A stretch of 64,000 nucleotides of DNA from a virus (IMGVR_UViG_3300045988_154391), one strand, 5' to 3'; shown: positions 4,593 to 64,000, counted from the first letter of the stretch. Translations and numbers: made by a program. The notes: generated from the sequence alone by a model not told the origin.

Positions 4593-5270
4593 TCACTCCA
4601 CTACAAACCAGTCACATGCCAGTAAGTCGCCTACAGAAGGAACCCACGGAACAACTACACCTTGTGCATTTTTTAAGGCGAAATAAGCACCATACGGAAC
4701 GAGGTCGCCGGGGAAATATCCCTTAATGGCTTCCATTCGTGCCGGGTACTGTCCTTCAGGAACCAGCCAGCAGAATTGGTTTTCGCCGTTCCACCCGCGT
4801 CGGGCAACTTTCTTGCCATCCTTCAGCCACATCAGCGCGTCAGAAAAGTCGGCTGCTTCAAGGTCGATTTCTTCTTGTAGAGTAGCGATACCGCCAGCAG
4901 AAATAGTTACGTCCCTGGCTGTAATGAATGTCACCCCATTGTGACCTTCAATGCTGAGCGATACCCCATTTTCGAAGAAGTCGTTAGTCCGACTAAAGCC
5001 TTCTTCAAATGTTTTTTCTGGTGAATAGGACAGAGATCCGTCCTCATAAGCGACCAGATATCCGCCAATTTCTGGTCGGTGTTTTTGCAAAAATATTTTA
5101 TCAACATGGACTTTTACCCCTTCTGGCTCAACGACTTCGATGTTGCAAAAAAGGACCACATCCATTAGGGCGATAATTTCGATATCTTTGATTTTTGAGG
5201 CGCGAACTGTTTTATGGCTTTTGTATTTTGGAAGTGCCGTCAAAAGCTCTTTCGTTGTCATGTTATTCAT
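4593..5270 (-). CDS. Two-domain protein with C-terminal DUF2829 (Thoeris anti-defense Tad2-like) domain
   Basis: ATG at 5270 preceded by GAGGAAAG. C-terminal ~85 aa (ALMWLKDGKKVARRGWNG ... PWVPSVGDLLACDWFVVE) fits the DUF2829 signature. The track ORF extends to a GTG at 5438. Confidence 0.6.
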   Translation of the reverse strand: MNNMTTKELLTALPKYKSHKTVRASKIKDIEIIALMDVVLFCNIEVVEPEGVKVHVDKIFLQKHRPEIGGYLVAYEDGSLSYSPEKTFEEGFSRTNDFFENGVSLSIEGHNGVTFITARDVTISAGGIATLQEEIDLEAADFSDALMWLKDGKKVARRGWNGENQFCWLVPEGQYPARMEAIKGYFPGDLVPYGAYFALKNAQGVVVPWVPSVGDLLACDWFVVE

Positions 5271-57275: not shown

Positions 57276-57615
57276 GTTGTAACCCTTGAATATCAACCAC
57301 AGAAAGCTCGTCTTTGTAGAAAAAGGCCAGGTTGTGGCACCCCCTCGTTTGAGCGTATGAGCTGGGACCAATTTCGTTCTTCCAGACAAATGGCTTCAAA
57401 TCCGTACGGCGAAGCATAAAAACGCGATTTGTTCCGCTCTGATTCCCAATGAGGCAAAAGCCTTCTTTCACCTTGATAGCCTGCAAGTTGTCGAGTTCAC
57501 CGCTGGTTACACGGCTATCGAACTCTTTGCGGCTTATTAGCTCCATCTGCATCTGACGACTCCAAACAAATGCCCATTGAAGGGCGATGGCTGAATGGTA
57601 CCGAAAATACGACAT
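57268..57615 (-). CDS. uhr: Uhr-like ORF upstream of hrdC
   Basis: ORF between the C1 operator and hrdC; no clear SD, so coding status uncertain. Confidence 0.4.
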
Positions 57616-57623
57616 AAAAAACA

Positions 57624-57640
57624 ATATTTATTAGAGCAAT
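57624..57640 (-). promoter_or_regulatory. C1 operator upstream of the uhr-hrdC-dmt operon
   Basis: ATATTTATTAGAGCAAT, one mismatch. Confidence 0.75.
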
Positions 57641-57721
57641 TTTGCAATAGTTGAACTCCATGTAGACCACAAACAACCTGAGTTAAAATAACGAAAATCA
57701 GAGCAAATAATTGGTGATGAC

Positions 57722-58006
57722 GTGGCAAGTATTGCAACAAAAGACAGCATTTGTTCGGGGCACGGAGGATTCCCATCCAGGCCTCCTGTAGAGAGTGAAC
57801 CACTACTTAAAGTCAACGGAGTCGAAGTGTTAGTTGATGGTAAGCAATATGCACAGCATACCGATGGAAACAGTACGCACGGTGGGCAAGCTATATCAAC
57901 CAGGGCATGGTTTACCGTCAATGGTAAAGGGATCGTATGCGTTGGTGACCCTGTTTCATGCGGATCTACCGTAGCGTCCGGAGACGGCCTGGTTCAGGTA
58001 AGTTAG
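57722..58006 (+). CDS. Small PAAR-like protein (94 aa)
   Basis: Gly/Cys pattern ICSGHGG ... THGG ... VCVGDPVSCGSTVASGDG resembles PAAR-type spike-tip proteins. Confidence 0.45.
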   Translation: MASIATKDSICSGHGGFPSRPPVESEPLLKVNGVEVLVDGKQYAQHTDGNSTHGGQAISTRAWFTVNGKGIVCVGDPVSCGSTVASGDGLVQVS

Positions 58007-58014
58007 GAGATATC

Positions 58015-58803
58015 ATGCTGGAAAAAGACTACCAGTTATCCGCATATAAAAAATTGGCTGCCGCCGGTGGGATGAAAACACCTGGTGCCATAACATCAGC
58101 ACGAAACAGTGCTAACACAGCAAAACTGCTTGCAGAAGAATTGACCGGATTAATTCTGGATACAATTGTCTATCCCGACACTATTACCAGCTATGTTTCA
58201 ACGATCAGAACAACCACAACCGGCTTAACGAACATTGGAGAACTGGCAACTAAGCACGCGGACCTGTTGGCTGGTTATGCAGATCTGTCAATGCTGCTTC
58301 AACTCGATATTGGTTGGGATGTTTACTGCCGTGCTAATGAGCGAGAAGTATCAGAACTGCCGATCTCTATTGCCATTGGTGATGTGACTATTACTAAATC
58401 GCTTGAGGACGCTGTAAACGCGCTTAATACATCAAGTTTAGTCGCTGCTATGGGGGAGATTAACCAGACCCTTAACACTGGCTCAGGAAGCTCGTCAGGC
58501 TCTGGTTCAGGCGGCGGCACTGCCACTCCCCCACCAGCACTAACAGAAGAGCAAATTGAATCTCTGAAAGTAGCAACTGAACAGTTTGGGGTTGTTTTCA
58601 ACCAGACAACAGCGCCCACAACTGCGTTACAACAGCAGTATGAACGAGCGAATGAAAGCGCCAATGTAGCCATAACTGCTTATAACCATGCTATCGGTAC
58701 TGCTCTTGCGGAAGCATCAGCAAATAAGGCCAGCACAGCCAGCGCAGTTGCTGCTTTGGTTCCTGATTCTGTTCTTGATGAATTAAACAAAGCGGCACAG
58801 TAA
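58015..58803 (+). CDS. Hypothetical protein with Gly/Ser-rich linker (263 aa)
   Basis: ATG at 58015 with TAGGAG SD. Confidence 0.55.
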   Translation: MLEKDYQLSAYKKLAAAGGMKTPGAITSARNSANTAKLLAEELTGLILDTIVYPDTITSYVSTIRTTTTGLTNIGELATKHADLLAGYADLSMLLQLDIGWDVYCRANEREVSELPISIAIGDVTITKSLEDAVNALNTSSLVAAMGEINQTLNTGSGSSSGSGSGGGTATPPPALTEEQIESLKVATEQFGVVFNQTTAPTTALQQQYERANESANVAITAYNHAIGTALAEASANKASTASAVAALVPDSVLDELNKAAQ

Positions 58804-58842: not shown

Positions 58843-59265
58843 ATGTCATTCTTTTCTACGTTAAAAACAGCTTTGTCTTTGAAGGAGAAACTTGCTGCTA
58901 CTGGTGTTCTTGTTCTGATTTGCGCACTTGTTGGTGCTGGGTTTGCATGGGAACGTCATCAGCTAAAGCAAGCCATCGAGAAAATTGGCAGTCTTGATCA
59001 GGCTGTTAAGGAACGTGATAAGTCAATAATGGATCTTAACCAGACCATTGAGACGATGAACAAAGCAGAGCAACATTTTCACAGCCAGGAAGTGAAAAAT
59101 GAATCAGAACAAGCCAAATATGCTGACAGGCAAATGGAACGAAAAGCTGAAGTTCAGAAACAACTGGTTGCGGCGGGTAATGTTCGCCAGCGCATTCCTG
59201 CTGACACTCAGCGGTTGCTCCGGGAGTCGATCAGCGAATTTAACGCCGACGCCGACAAAGGTTAA
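58843..59265 (+). CDS. i-spanin-like protein (N-terminal TM helix plus periplasmic coiled coil)
   Basis: ATG at 58843 with AGGAGG SD; TM segment ATGVLVLICALVGAGFAW then coiled coil. Confidence 0.55.
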   Translation: MSFFSTLKTALSLKEKLAATGVLVLICALVGAGFAWERHQLKQAIEKIGSLDQAVKERDKSIMDLNQTIETMNKAEQHFHSQEVKNESEQAKYADRQMERKAEVQKQLVAAGNVRQRIPADTQRLLRESISEFNADADKG

Positions 59266-59431
59266 CCACCCTGCCCCCAAAAGTGCATTTATGTGCAGAA
59301 TGCCAGAGTTTAGCAGTGAATATTTTGATGATCTGCCAGCGTATATCCTCGATACAGAAACGATGCTGATGGGGATTAACAGGAAGAATCGCAACGTTAA
59401 TGATTACAACCGCGCTATCAGCGGTAACTAA
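59180..59431 (+). CDS. o-spanin-like lipoprotein overlapping the i-spanin gene out of frame
   Basis: Signal peptide with lipobox LTLSGC; gene starts inside the upstream ORF in another frame and extends past it. A TTG at 59168 is an alternative start. Confidence 0.5.
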   Translation: MFASAFLLTLSGCSGSRSANLTPTPTKVNHPAPKSAFMCRMPEFSSEYFDDLPAYILDTETMLMGINRKNRNVNDYNRAISGN

Positions 59432-59442
59432 AAGGGATTTTT

Positions 59443-59835
59443 ATGTCTGATAAAGTAACAGTAAAGCAAACTATCAACAAAGCGACTTCAATCTACAAAA
59501 TTGAGCACATCACTGTTGGCAAGCCAGGATCTGAACAATACCGTCATGCTTTCGAGCTTGCCGATCAGCTTGGTTTAAAACACCCGGATTGCATTGAGCA
59601 TGTATTTCCGACCTATGCTGATGAGCAATGTACTCATGTTCTTACCGAAGAGGATTTTTTCAGCACTGAAGAACGAGAAGGCGTTGATCGCTGCATTGGT
59701 GTGATTTGCTCTTCAGTGAGTTATGAGTTATTCCCTAATGTCCATGAAAATGGTGGTATTGGATACCAATTCCTGTACGAAGGCGATGAGCTTAAATGTT
59801 ATGAACATGGTCTTCTTATCGAAAGCGTAGAATAA
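59443..59835 (+). CDS. Hypothetical protein (130 aa) next to the origin
   Basis: ORF followed by a hairpin terminator. Confidence 0.5.
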   Translation: MSDKVTVKQTINKATSIYKIEHITVGKPGSEQYRHAFELADQLGLKHPDCIEHVFPTYADEQCTHVLTEEDFFSTEEREGVDRCIGVICSSVSYELFPNVHENGGIGYQFLYEGDELKCYEHGLLIESVE

Positions 59836-59876
59836 TACCCTTCCTTCCAACCGGCTATGTTGGCCGGTTTATTCAA

Positions 59877-59985
59877 CTTATCCACAGCATAGATCCAATA
59901 AACAGATCCTAAAGAGAACCCAGGAAGATCCAAAGAAGATCCCGGATCGCTGTAAGCCGCGCCATTTCTGGCCTGAAATGGGATC
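59877..59985. other. Replication origin core: DnaA box plus cluster of Dam GATC sites
   Basis: TTATCCACA at 59877-59885; GATC at 59892, 59905, 59927, 59938, 59945 and 59982. Confidence 0.65.
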
Positions 59986-59989
59986 AACA

Positions 59990-60092
59990 TTGACTATACG
60001 CGATTTTATGTTGACTGTGCACGATTTATTGTTGACTGCACGCGATTTATTGTTGACTATACGCGACAGAAACATTGACTGTACGCGATTTT
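59990..60092 (+). repeat. Five direct iterons at ~21-bp periodicity upstream of repA
   Basis: TTGACT(A/G)T(A/G)CGCGATTT-type repeats starting at 59990, 60011, 60032, 60053 and 60075. Confidence 0.75.
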
Positions 60093-60168
60093 AGAGCCTG
60101 ACTATTCACAGTTGTTGATAACTGCAATCCAGATGACGCCAGGCCGCGACACATATGGAGAAACCACG

Positions 60169-61053
60169 ATGCCGGAAGAAAATAAAGGCTTCCTTAGCGT
60201 TGAAGAAGTTGCAGGAAATACAGGAGAAATCCACAGCCTGAAACCCAATAACAATAGCACTATACAACCCATCGCTTTGTTGCGCTTAGGTGTGTTTGTG
60301 CCAACCTTAAAATCTACCAATGTGGCACTACGTCGCGGATCGTCAGTTACTACAAACACAACGAACGCAACCGAAGAACTATCAAGCCTCAAAATTGTTG
60401 AGCAGGAAGGCTATGAGGGAATTGAAATACATGGTCCACGCCTGGATATGGATACTGATTTTAAGGTGTGGGTGGGCATAACCTCCGCGTTGTTTGACTA
60501 CGCACCTGATGATGACGGCATAATCACCCTGCCATTCTCCGAGTTTGCCGATCGATGCGGCTATCCACGTAAGCGCCTTTCAAAGGCGTTCCGTAAAAGT
60601 ATTGATGACTCTCTGACACGCATTCAGCAGACAGTTGTCAAATTCCGCTTCCCGGCGGCAAAAGGTCATCTCAATAACATTAACGTCAACTTGTTGGCAT
60701 ATAGCAGCCTGAATACCGAGCTTGATGTTATCGAGATCCAGCCGCAGAAACAGCTATCTGAACTTTACTATGTTGACTATAAGCGAATCCTGAAGCTGAA
60801 GATGCTGGATAAGCTCGGGCGCAAAGAGACGGCCAAGGTACTGTATACATTCTTTGAGGCTCTACCTGCCAACCCGGCACCTGTCAGCATTGAGCGCCTT
60901 AGAGCAAGGCTTAATCTCAAATCATCCGTTAGCGTGCAAAATAGCGTTATCAGAAAAGCCATGAAAGATTTGGAAGCTATTGAATATCTTAAATTTTCAG
61001 AGATAAAAAACGGCAGGAAAATCGGCTTCCAGATCCATAAGCGCAATCCATAA
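60169..61053 (+). CDS. repA: RepA replication initiator (iteron-binding)
   Basis: ATG at 60169 with GGAGAAA SD; shares blocks with P1 RepA as recalled (IQPIALLRLGVFVP, GPRLDMDTDFKVWVG, C-terminal RNP) but is clearly diverged. Confidence 0.8.
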   Translation: MPEENKGFLSVEEVAGNTGEIHSLKPNNNSTIQPIALLRLGVFVPTLKSTNVALRRGSSVTTNTTNATEELSSLKIVEQEGYEGIEIHGPRLDMDTDFKVWVGITSALFDYAPDDDGIITLPFSEFADRCGYPRKRLSKAFRKSIDDSLTRIQQTVVKFRFPAAKGHLNNINVNLLAYSSLNTELDVIEIQPQKQLSELYYVDYKRILKLKMLDKLGRKETAKVLYTFFEALPANPAPVSIERLRARLNLKSSVSVQNSVIRKAMKDLEAIEYLKFSEIKNGRKIGFQIHKRNP

Positions 61054-61317
61054 TATTGACTATATGCGATAGCGAGAAGTTGACTATAGGCGACATTCGT
61101 TGACGCTGGTGGATTTTTGCTGGCGTCAATATTCTGCAAGCTGCTATTGAGATGGCTTTTAGGGTCATTTCATCGCGTATAGTCAACGTTTCTCCCGACA
61201 ATATCTTACATAGTCGATTTTTGGTGGAGTTAAATCGACTACAGTCAACTTTTGACTGTAGTCACATCGCGCATAGTCAACTATTCACATTAACTTTCGC
61301 GCATAGTCAACATTTGC
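61052..61317. repeat. incA-like control locus: about eight iteron copies in both orientations downstream of repA
   Basis: TTGACTATATGCGAT, TTGACTATAGGCGAC, and inverted copies CGCGTATAGTCAAC, CTACAGTCAAC, GCGCATAGTCAAC (twice). Confidence 0.65.
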
Positions 61318-61345
61318 GCGGTTCTCATCAAGCAGTGGTATTGAT

Positions 61346-62155
61346 ATGCAAGAAGAGAAACAACACTACCTCTACGTTCTGGTGCCGGAGAACGGAGATA
61401 CTTTTAAAATCGGCATTTCATGTGGTCCATTGGCACGGTTTAAAGGGCTACAAGTGAATCCCGATTTTGCGCTTTCACGGGTCTATCGTGGTACGCGTTT
61501 GGCAATAGTTAATCTTGAGCGGGCTTTACACGCAACCTTTTTCCCCTGGAATGCGCCGTGGGAGAAAAGCGCCGGTGGCGGGCATACTGAATGGTTTACA
61601 CGAGAGTGTCTTGATAAGGTTTTGGCTCATATCGAATATCTAAATGATATGTGGGGAGGGATTCTCGAGCGGATTAAGTCGAATGATTTACTTCAGCGTC
61701 CAGTAGATGCTGCTCGCTCTTTCGAAAAAGAACTGGATGTTACTTCTATCGTGACTTTCAAAGATGACGCAGGAATGAGGGATGTGGCTTATGTCTCCAT
61801 ATCTGGCTATGAACCTGACGCGATCCGCGCTCAATGTGAATTGCTGAAAGCGATGTTTACGCTTCGGACTAAATATCCCTGGGAGACAGGGCGGGTGTGC
61901 TTCCCTATGGAAGAGTTAACCGCCACCATTGATTCCCAGCTTTACCACGATAATCCAGAGAAGTTTTTTAGCCTTTTAGCCGGTAATGGGCTTAACTGTG
62001 TGTCCGGACTGGGGCGAAGTAGAATCCAACATGCCTCGCTCTTCGGTCCCTTCTTTTACGATCGAAACGGGTGCTTTGAGGCTGAACTTCCGGCGCTTAC
62101 GCGTGCTATAGATACTATCGATTTCGAACGATTATTCGCAGCTCTTAACAAATAA
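61346..62155 (+). CDS. T5orf172/GIY-YIG-like domain protein (269 aa)
   Basis: N-terminal pattern YLYVLVPENGDTFKIGIS ... R ... LERALHATF ... GGHTEWF fits the T5orf172 signature; C-terminal ~170 aa uncharacterised. Confidence 0.6.
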   Translation: MQEEKQHYLYVLVPENGDTFKIGISCGPLARFKGLQVNPDFALSRVYRGTRLAIVNLERALHATFFPWNAPWEKSAGGGHTEWFTRECLDKVLAHIEYLNDMWGGILERIKSNDLLQRPVDAARSFEKELDVTSIVTFKDDAGMRDVAYVSISGYEPDAIRAQCELLKAMFTLRTKYPWETGRVCFPMEELTATIDSQLYHDNPEKFFSLLAGNGLNCVSGLGRSRIQHASLFGPFFYDRNGCFEAELPALTRAIDTIDFERLFAALNK

Positions 62156-62162
62156 CACTGAT

Positions 62163-62183
62163 GCCCCTGAACGGGGCTTTTTT
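62163..62183 (+). terminator. Intrinsic terminator after the T5orf172-like gene
   Basis: Stem GCCCC/GGGGC with loop TGAAC, followed by T6. Confidence 0.6.
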
Positions 62184-62323
62184 GTGCCCTCCTTGCAACT
62201 CTCTATCGTGCAAAATGAACCAAACATGCAGAGAATGCTATGTACAAGCATCTACGCATACATTATTATTTTATGCAGCATTTTTAATTAAATTCAAAAA
62301 TACAGCATAAAGGATGACTTTCG

Positions 62324-63520
62324 ATGAGTGATTCCAGCCAGCTTCACAAGGTTGCTCAAAGAGCAAACAGAATGCTCAATGTTCTGACTGAACAAGTACA
62401 GTTGCAAAAGGATGAGCTACACGCGAACGAGTTTTACCAGGTCTATGCGAAAGCGGCACTGGCAAAACTGCCTCTACTGACTCGAGCGAACGTTGACTAT
62501 GCCGTAAGTGAAATGGAAGAAAAGGGTTATGTTTTCGATAAACGCCCTGCTGGCTCTTCAATGAAATATGCGATGTCAATTCAGAACATCATTGACATAT
62601 ATGAACATCGCGGAGTGCCAAAATACCGGGATCGCTACAGCGAAGCGTATGTGATTTTCATCTCCAATCTTAAAGGCGGTGTGTCAAAAACTGTATCGAC
62701 GGTTTCTCTGGCGCATGCAATGCGTGCTCACCCTCATCTTCTGATGGAAGATTTAAGGATTCTGGTTATTGACCTTGATCCGCAATCTTCAGCAACGATG
62801 TTTTTAAGCCATAAACACTCTATTGGTATCGTAAACGCAACATCTGCACAGGCTATGTTGCAGAATGTAAGCCGTGAAGAGCTGTTAGAGGAGTTTATTG
62901 TTCCTTCTGTTGTACCTGGGGTTGACGTTATGCCTGCGTCGATTGACGATGCCTTTATTGCATCCGATTGGAGAGAGCTGTGCAATGAGCATCTACCGGG
63001 TCAGAACATCCATGCTGTCCTGAAAGAAAATGTGATTGATAAGCTGAAGAGCGATTATGACTTTATCCTCGTTGATAGTGGTCCTCACCTTGACGCCTTC
63101 CTGAAAAATGCTTTGGCCTCGGCCAATATACTGTTTACACCTCTGCCGCCAGCAACTGTCGATTTCCACTCATCGCTTAAATACGTTGCCCGCCTTCCTG
63201 AGTTGGTGAAACTCATTTCGGATGAAGGCTGCGAGTGCCAGCTTGCGACTAACATTGGTTTTATGTCCAAGTTGAGTAACAAGGCAGACCATAAGTATTG
63301 CCATAGCCTGGCTAAAGAAGTGTTCGGTGGGGATATGCTCGATGTCGTCCTCCCTCGCCTTGACGGTTTTGAACGTTGCGGCGAGTCTTTTGACACTGTT
63401 ATTTCAGCTAACCCGGCAACGTATGTTGGTAGTGCTGATGCATTGAAGAACGCGCGAATTGCCGCGGAAGATTTTGCTAAAGCAGTTTTTGACCGTATTG
63501 AATTTATCAGATCTAACTGA
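62324..63520 (+). CDS. parA: ParA partition ATPase
   Basis: 398-aa protein MSDSSQLHKVAQRANRMLNVLTEQVQLQKDELHANEFYQVYAKAALAKLP ... with deviant Walker A (SNLKGGVSKT); matches P1 ParA. Confidence 0.92.
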   Translation: MSDSSQLHKVAQRANRMLNVLTEQVQLQKDELHANEFYQVYAKAALAKLPLLTRANVDYAVSEMEEKGYVFDKRPAGSSMKYAMSIQNIIDIYEHRGVPKYRDRYSEAYVIFISNLKGGVSKTVSTVSLAHAMRAHPHLLMEDLRILVIDLDPQSSATMFLSHKHSIGIVNATSAQAMLQNVSREELLEEFIVPSVVPGVDVMPASIDDAFIASDWRELCNEHLPGQNIHAVLKENVIDKLKSDYDFILVDSGPHLDAFLKNALASANILFTPLPPATVDFHSSLKYVARLPELVKLISDEGCECQLATNIGFMSKLSNKADHKYCHSLAKEVFGGDMLDVVLPRLDGFERCGESFDTVISANPATYVGSADALKNARIAAEDFAKAVFDRIEFIRSN

Positions 63521-63536
63521 GGAGTAAGAAACCCCC

Positions 63537-64000
63537 ATGTCAAAGAAAAACAGACCAACAATTGGGCGAACCCTTAATCCTTCAATATTAAGCGGATTTG
63601 ATAGTTCTTCAGCCTCTGGCGATCGAATCGAGCAGGTATTCAAGTTATCAACTGGTCGCCAGGCCACATTTATCGAGGAGATAATTCCTCCGAACCAGGT
63701 AGAAAGCGATACCTTTATTGATCAGCATAACAACGGGCGTGACCAGGCATCTCTTACGCCAAAATCATTAAAAAGTATCCGAAGCACTATTAAGCATCAG
63801 CAATTTTACCCTGCAATAGGTGTTAGACGGGCTACAGGGAAAATTGAAATTTTGGATGGTTCCCGGCGTCGAGCTTCTGCCATCTTAGAGAACGTAGGGT
63901 TGCGGGTTTTAGTCACGGACCAGGAGATCAGCGTTCAGGAAGCGCAAAATTTAGCGAAAGACGTTCAGACAGCATTGCAGCACAGCATTCGAGAAATAGG
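63537..64000 (+). CDS. parB: ParB partition protein, N-terminal part; continues past the window end
   Basis: ATG at 63537 after GGAGTAAG; MSKKNRPTIGRTLNPSILSGFDSSSASGDRIEQVFKLSTGRQATFIEE ... matches the P1 ParB N-terminus. Confidence 0.85.
   Translation, partial: MSKKNRPTIGRTLNPSILSGFDSSSASGDRIEQVFKLSTGRQATFIEEIIPPNQVESDTFIDQHNNGRDQASLTPKSLKSIRSTIKHQQFYPAIGVRRATGKIEILDGSRRRASAILENVGLRVLVTDQEISVQEAQNLAKDVQTALQHSIREI

Follow-up and report, generated by a model that had tools for sequence, protein, structure and literature searches.

Organization of the maintenance region

Positions 59877 to 63520 of the viral sequence IMGVR_UViG_3300045988_154391, of which a stretch of 64,000 nucleotides (the window) was analysed, contain an origin region with iterons, the initiator gene repA, a second iteron array, a gene for a T5orf172-domain protein and the partition gene parA; parB follows directly. 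We are highly confident that a P1-like phage-plasmid (Punavirus, SJ46/pO111_2 lineage) uses this region for its maintenance as a plasmid prophage, and that the module combines a p0111-type replication cassette with the partition operon of P1. P1-like phage-plasmids carry genes for extended-spectrum beta-lactamases and other resistance genes and are hence of practical interest.

The identification follows from comparison with sequenced elements, including P1 (NC_005856) and P7 (NC_050152), which were fetched and aligned to the window. All 3,644 bp of the region show 98.2–98.8% nucleotide identity to phages Ro157c2YLVW, SJ46, JL22, phi456 and RCS47. Over 5 kb (59000–64000) the window is 99.16% identical to plasmid pO111_2 (NC_013370 = AP010962), the reference for the ‘p0111’ rep gene (PMC11165635). 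RepA shares 293 of 294 residues with that of pO111_2, which is the PlasmidFinder p0111 reference, and both RepA and ParA are 100% identical to their SJ46 counterparts. Positions 1–25000 of the window likewise match SJ46/P1. The region thus has what defines p0111 elements: a rep gene nearly identical to the reference, and a P1-like backbone with the cassette between upfA and parA. It does not have what defines IncY, as RepA is only 42.8% identical (local alignment) to that of P1/P7, and 19-bp iterons of the GATGTGTGCTGGAGGGAAA type are absent.

The initial annotation had described the region as a mosaic, and comparison of junctions and identities bears this out: a non-P1 oriR/repA/incA-like cassette is joined to Ppar, parA and parB of the P1 type. 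The arrangement is real, yet it is common and was published before as the p0111 replicon type; it is not new, because pO111_2 and several phages are nearly identical, hundreds of database records contain the cassette, and the replacement has been described in papers. PLSDB contains 404 plasmids with the cassette (near full length in 391), and 419 of 5,426 complete Escherichia coli genomes have it, whereas P1’s own IncY cassette was found in 361. JL22 was reported to carry repA′ (p0111) and an open reading frame (ORF) of unknown function in place of repA (IncY), and 55 P1-like elements were divided into 24 of p0111 and 31 of IncY type (PMC9603915). About 17 changes of replicon type were inferred along the tree of Salmonella phage-plasmids (PMC11165635). 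The cassette is one of two standard replicon types in P1-like phage-plasmids, and as a discovery the finding matters little.

Boundaries of the cassette

Two more distant relatives helped to delimit the cassette. One is NZ_CP085065.1 (L004/L011; below, L004), an E. coli phage-plasmid of about 94 kb which at 77.3–78.9 kb encodes a RepA 85% identical to that of the window. Its origin is laid out as in the window; the backbone, which includes phage tail genes, is not of the P1 type, and neither the T5orf172 gene nor adjacent parAB is present. MOB-suite types this plasmid as ‘rep_cluster_2164’. Phage D6 was considered as the host of this 85%-identical RepA relative and was rejected, as tblastn against phages gave only p0111-, SSU5- and P1/P7-type records. 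The other, a contig of 95.7 kb from Logan ERR2144811 (L012), belongs to a divergent P1-like element with a backbone of 68–76% nucleotide identity to the window; its RepA is 84% identical, its iterons are the same, and upfA is absent.

The cassette spans approximately 59,870–62,221, from the DnaA box to the T5orf172 gene, and replaces oriR-repA-incA of P1. In a BLAST comparison, the window matched P1 at 96% identity on the left, as far as 59972, and at 99.3% on the right, from 62222 onwards; between these arms, only 59 nt inside repA could be aligned (76% identical). The right junction is sharp. It lies at 62221/62222 (position 4998 of the P1 locus), 19 bp before the −35 element of Ppar. The left end is graded and varies within upfA/oriR, the 3′ third of upfA falling into the graded zone: identity to P1 is 96–100% per 50-nt bin until about 59700, then decays, and amounts to 74–77% over 59850–59950.

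We rejected a left junction at 59972/59973, and with it a derivation of the DnaA/GATC half of the origin from P1, in view of this early decay and of the closer match to L004. Segment 59878–59989 has 77.9% identity to P1, compared with 89.4% to L004, whose backbone is not of the P1 type, and 85.6% to L012; the comparable segment of SSU5 is 74% identical. Since the DnaA/GATC segment is nearer to the non-P1 relative than to P1, the whole oriR belongs to the incoming cassette. Judged from these alignments, the resemblance of this segment to P1 is family-level conservation.

In comparison with plasmid NZ_CP098199.1, which carries a 100%-identical cassette, there is a tract of 2.6 kb without a single mismatch (59692–62297), whereas the flanks differ by about 1.5% (65 positions). 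This pattern suggests a recent exchange of the cassette between different P1-like backbones. SJ46 is P1-like over 59700–59860, where the window is not; such variation of the left endpoint between elements points to repeated homologous exchange. By recombination, the cassette passes from one P1-like backbone to another. The features of the region are listed in Table 1.

Table 1. Features of the maintenance region and its borders (window coordinates).
Feature	Position	Strand	Remarks
upfA homologue	59443..59835	+	126/130 residues shared with P1 UpfA; final gene of the P1 backbone ahead of the cassette
Terminator-like hairpin 3′ of upfA	59847..59863	+	Common to window and P1
Left DnaA boxes	59869..59886	+	Degenerate TTATTCAAC, then perfect TTATCCACA
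GATC (Dam) cluster	59892..59985		Five sites in AGATCC heptamers; a sixth abuts iteron 1
Five direct iterons (incC equivalent)	59990..60091	+	TTGACTRTRCGCGATTT
Two DnaA-box-like sites right of the iterons	60102..60121	+ and −	CTATTCACA (+), TTATCAACA (−); one mismatch each
repA	60169..61053	+	p0111-type initiator, 294 amino acids; predicted to bind iterons
Iteron-like site in repA	60773..60787	+	TTGACTATAAGCGAA, codons VDYKR
incA-like array	61056..61310		Direct iterons at 61056, 61080; inverted iterons at 61172–86, 61234–48, 61266–80, 61296–310
Variant half-iteron	61100–61115		TTGACGCTGGTGGATT; nearly invariant in window, L012 and L004
T5orf172-domain gene	61346..62155	+	269 amino acids; Pfam score 26.2 bits (cut-off 20); last gene of the cassette
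Intrinsic-terminator-like hairpin with T-run	62163..62187	+	Closes the cassette
Ppar promoter and ParA operator	62222..62323	+	Near-identity to P1 begins
parA	62324..63520	+	P1 type; Pfam HTH_54, AAA_31
parB, 5′ part	63537..64000	+	P1 type; first 154 codons, cut by window end

Origin of replication and iterons

The perfect left DnaA box (59878–59886) is one of two exact matches to TTATNCACA in the 64-kb window. It is kept in P1, L004 and L012, and the P1 annotation has a DnaA site at the aligned position. GATC sites are located at 59892, 59905, 59927, 59938, 59945 and 59982, the first five within 59892–59948; by analogy with P1, unwinding and the sensing of methylation are presumed to take place in this part of oriR. 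The five iterons start at 59990, 60011, 60032, 60053 and 60075 (spacing 21/21/21/22 bp), and the same array was found in L004, L006 and L012. The consensus TTGACTRTRCGCGAT has 15 matches with up to three mismatches in the window, compared with 5.5 ± 2.1 expected, and 12 of the 15 lie within 59990–61310; the iterons are thus statistically real and clustered. At the position aligned to the two DnaA-box-like sites right of the iterons, L004 and L012 have a perfect TGTGGATAA.

Phased direct repeats beside a rep gene, DnaA boxes and an AT/GATC-rich region are the hallmarks of a Rep_3 replicon, and all of them are present. The order left DnaA box, GATC heptamers, five phased iterons, inverted DnaA-like box, repA, and direct plus inverted iterons is common to the window, L004 and L012. 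P1 shares the general origin architecture as well, as the initial annotation had stated, and every feature that it listed for the origin was found in place. Its statement that the iterons differ from those of P1 also held: TTGACTRTRCGCGAT shares no similarity with GATGTGTGCTGGAGGGAAA.

Downstream of repA, the layout of the control array is kept in L004 and L012. The variant half-iteron TTGACGCTGGTGGATT is better conserved than the true iterons surrounding it, but its inverted partner (61120–61129) is not conserved in either relative. The inverted repeat formed by the two (61100–61129) was considered as a repA terminator and rejected because of a fold z-score of −1.6 and the missing conservation of the second arm.

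The initiator RepA

The most likely start codon of repA is at 60169, with a GGAG motif 6 nt upstream, and the PGAP annotation of NZ_CP098199.1 has the same start; an alternative in-frame ATG at 60133 is the repA start in the SJ46 record. RepA can be aligned with P1 RepA over its full length (119/291 identical residues, E = 3e-71), and 42% identity between the RepA proteins of SJ46 and P1 was reported earlier (PMC5241659). Between P1 and P7 themselves, RepA identity is 100%. RepA and iterons are clearly not identical to those of P1, as the initial annotation had expected; its description of RepA as retaining only short blocks of similarity, however, understates the homology in view of the full-length alignment.

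RepA is an initiator of the Rep_3 (WH1–WH2) family, kin to P1 RepA and RepFIB. The Pfam domain Rep3_C was detected with 27.1 bits, above the cut-off. As a sequence search against the PDB revealed nothing under E = 0.39, a fold search was used. With the AlphaFold2 model as query, Foldseek matched RctB (E = 5e-8), RepE, pi and pPS10 RepA at probability 1.00, and TrfA was also matched. Outside the p0111 cluster, there are a few relatives with 84–94% identity; the remainder are at or below 53%, with 45–49% for the RepFIB and SSU5 types and 41–43% for P1/P7.

An iteron-like site was also detected within repA. In three diverged RepA lineages, 25% of the codons specifying the same amino acid are identical in all three, and the VDYKR site is the only run of at least five codons that is fully identical. 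This codon conservation suggests selection on the DNA. The intragenic site may possibly be an additional RepA-binding site with a new regulatory role.

A few points weigh against our identification of the region or limit its reach. The Pfam domain Rep3_N scored 21.8 bits, slightly under its cut-off of 22.4. The structural model of RepA is of moderate quality (mean predicted local distance difference test score 71), and the N-terminal 80 residues are unmodelled. In a consensus scan of the + strand, no promoter was called for repA; adjacent iterons form a weak TTGACT-17 nt-GACTAT arrangement, seen by eye, which bears on the repA promoter and on autorepression. The parS site lies beyond 64000, so that the P1-type specificity of partition is taken from relatives. 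No experimental work on this RepA or on its iterons came up in the literature.

Automated names for the cassette can be misleading. NZ_CP098199.1 is typed as ‘IncHI1B’ by PLSDB/MOB-suite, and some phage records name the p0111 RepA ‘RepFIB’ or ‘replication helicase’. For annotators, the cassette is p0111-type and not IncY, RepFIB or IncHI1B.

We read the cassette as an iteron-controlled theta replicon. How it might replicate can be described by transfer from the P1 annotation and the established knowledge on oriR, incC and incA of P1, on which each of the following steps depends. DnaA would bind the boxes flanking the iterons, while RepA monomers would bind the five phased iterons and, with DnaA, open the adjoining GATC-rich segment. 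At the origin iterons, bound RepA probably also acts as a repressor of repA. The iterons in the array behind repA, direct and inverted, would titrate RepA and pair with the origin (handcuffing), resulting in low copy number.

The partition genes

Ppar, parA and the 5′ end of parB are 99.3% identical to P1 from 62,222 onwards. The −35 (62241–62246) and −10 (62264–62269) elements of Ppar were located by alignment with P1; a promoter-like match from the scan spans 62241–62269, and the P1 annotation places Ppar and the operator at the aligned position. ParA is identical to P1 ParA in 397 of 398 residues (99.7%) and the ParB N-terminus in 151 of 154 (98.1%), compared with 58.9% and 48.4%, respectively, for P7. 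This agrees with the initial annotation, which had placed both close to P1. The partition system is P1-type, because its proteins are nearly identical to those of P1 and distant from those of P7. In NZ_CP098199.1, all 333 ParB residues are identical to P1, and all ParB boxes of parS are intact and identical to P1.

ParA and ParB of RCS47, equated with those of SJ46, were described as identical to P7 and distant from P1 (PMC5241659). This does not fit the sequences: SJ46 ParA and ParB are 99.7% identical to P1 and 44–59% to P7 (ParB 44%). Annotators should label the partition system P1-type and not P7-type.

The T5orf172 gene

The gene for the T5orf172-domain protein was found, as the initial annotation had it, at the seam between the rep and par parts. 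The protein consists of an N-terminal GIY-YIG-like domain and a winged-helix-like C-terminal part. The Tyr, Arg and Glu core residues typical of T5orf172 are conserved in a GIY-YIG-like fold, and Y10, K21, G23, R31, E58, H62 and E82-W-F are invariant. It belongs to a small family (phrog_2876); among 5.8 billion proteins, a single full-length homologue, a divergent one, was found, and remote relatives match only the N-terminal ~100 residues. L012 has a 44%-identical homologue in the equivalent slot, so the pairing of rep and T5orf172 genes is old within P1-like elements.

Linkage of the gene to p0111 repA is strict (401 versus 404 PLSDB plasmids). The E. coli records with the T5orf172 gene (419) and those with IncY rep (362) add up exactly to their union (781); therefore, no E. 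coli record pairs the two. The gene is intact in the window, while SJ46 (Q228*) and pO111_2 (S111*) have independent nonsense mutations, from which it follows that it is dispensable for maintenance. An Odn-like chimera with a Rep-derived C-terminus was rejected, as BLASTP and phmmer found no similarity to the RepA proteins of p0111, P1, RepFIB and SSU5 or to ParA/ParB. Membership in a defence system was rejected likewise, with no match in PADLOC or NCBIfam.

Co-residence of p0111 and IncY elements

To the initial annotation, the iterons had implied a different incompatibility group. This stands for replicon typing (p0111, not IncY) and for nothing further. The two types ‘can theoretically be compatible’ (PMC11165635), and we found no experimental incompatibility test of p0111 versus IncY in the literature. 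A concatenated query retrieved 778 E. coli genomes with either cassette, compared with 419 and 361 for separate queries; only two genomes therefore carry both. About 28 would be expected under independence, so that co-carriage is about 14-fold rarer, although sampling structure may affect this figure. No E. coli record contains both cassettes together.

Since P1-type ParA/ParB are kept and parS is intact in the closest relative, partition-mediated (incB) incompatibility, together with P1 immunity, is likely to keep p0111 and IncY elements apart despite their different replicons. Replacement of the replicon thus does not imply free coexistence of the two kinds of P1-like element.

Alternative explanations

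That the region is an undescribed mosaic or a new incompatibility type may seem to follow from the divergence of RepA from P1/P7 and from the unrelated iterons, and the ‘IncHI1B’ label of a plasmid with an identical cassette illustrates that automated typing can conceal the true type. We regard this as extremely unlikely: it is already refuted by the near-identity of the region to phages in the literature and to pO111_2, the p0111 reference, and by the presence of the cassette in hundreds of database records. The replacement is also explicit in three papers (PMC9603915; PMC11165635; PMC5241659). Just as little credit can be given to the cassette as a decaying remnant, with maintenance of the element by another replicon. 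Inactivation of the T5orf172 gene in some elements would be in line with decay, but repA is intact, with conservation of 99% or more across 394 plasmids, the arrays of iterons are kept in full in the different lineages, and at this locus P1-like elements carry either the p0111 or the IncY cassette, according to PMC9603915 and the E. coli records.

A further explanation adds a driving force to the exchange between P1-like elements. The T5orf172 protein might be a selfish nuclease, homing-like or origin-directed, which cuts IncY-type P1 DNA close to the rep/par seam or at the P1 iterons; we consider this improbable. Repair with the p0111 element as template would in that case also convert the adjacent replicon, and this would account for frequent switching and for the exclusion of IncY. 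The gene does lie at the sharp right junction, opposite a graded and variable left junction as in a co-conversion tract. In phages, homing endonuclease genes of the T5orf172 type lie at the boundaries of exchange (PMC10448857), and Odn of ICP1 is a T5orf172 nuclease cutting an iteron origin (PMC8263062). The old and strict association with p0111 repA, including the homologue in L012, would also fit, but the gene never moves without repA and in this is not like an independent homing gene. The lack of similarity of its C-terminus to any Rep or Par protein distinguishes it from Odn, its translation signals look weak, PADLOC gave no match, and two elements of the lineage carry nonsense alleles. 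The rarity of genomes with both cassettes, which such a nuclease could produce, can be put down just as well to shared P1 immunity and parS. If a nuclease aimed at the IncY cassette or at the empty site were nevertheless encoded here, the whole replication cassette would behave much like a homing unit, and IncY-type P1 elements would be converted or excluded by it. The reading as a p0111-type cassette joined by recombination to the P1 partition operon is the one that we adopt.

Outside the module, upstream of it, we observed dense substitutions in upfC/upfB (57600–58400) relative to SJ46 and NZ_CP098199.1. The cluster has the appearance of a hypervariable or recombinant patch, limited to this part of a backbone which is otherwise about 99% identical.

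Comparison with known systems

With ICP1 Odn and the T5orf172 homing genes of phages, the T5orf172 protein of the window shares the T5orf172/GIY-YIG-like domain, a separate DNA-binding-like region and the position at an exchange boundary. Compared with Odn, the domain order is reversed, the nuclease-like domain being N-terminal in the window protein.

RepFIB (IncF) and SSU5 have initiators of the same family as RepA, slightly nearer to it than that of P1, and the SSU5 origin has a similar segment with DnaA box and GATC heptamers. Their iterons differ (approximately CTGACTACAGCTTATAT in RepFIB and AACCACTGTAGAGAG in SSU5), as do their genetic contexts, and the T5orf172 gene is absent.

P1 and P7 (IncY) share with the window the locus and the flanking genes, DnaA box(es), five GATC sites, five phased iterons, a RepA homologous over its full length, and a control array in which direct repeats are followed by inverted ones. 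Besides the unrelated iterons, the window differs by the extra T5orf172 gene between array and Ppar, by the conserved iteron-like site inside repA, and by a control array of six clear iterons, compared with nine (three direct and six inverted) in incA of P1.

Closest are pO111_2 and SJ46. They have the same gene order of upfA, oriR, repA, iteron array, T5orf172 ORF, parA and parB and differ in allelic detail only; the left recombination endpoint of SJ46 is located about 150 bp to the right of that in the window.

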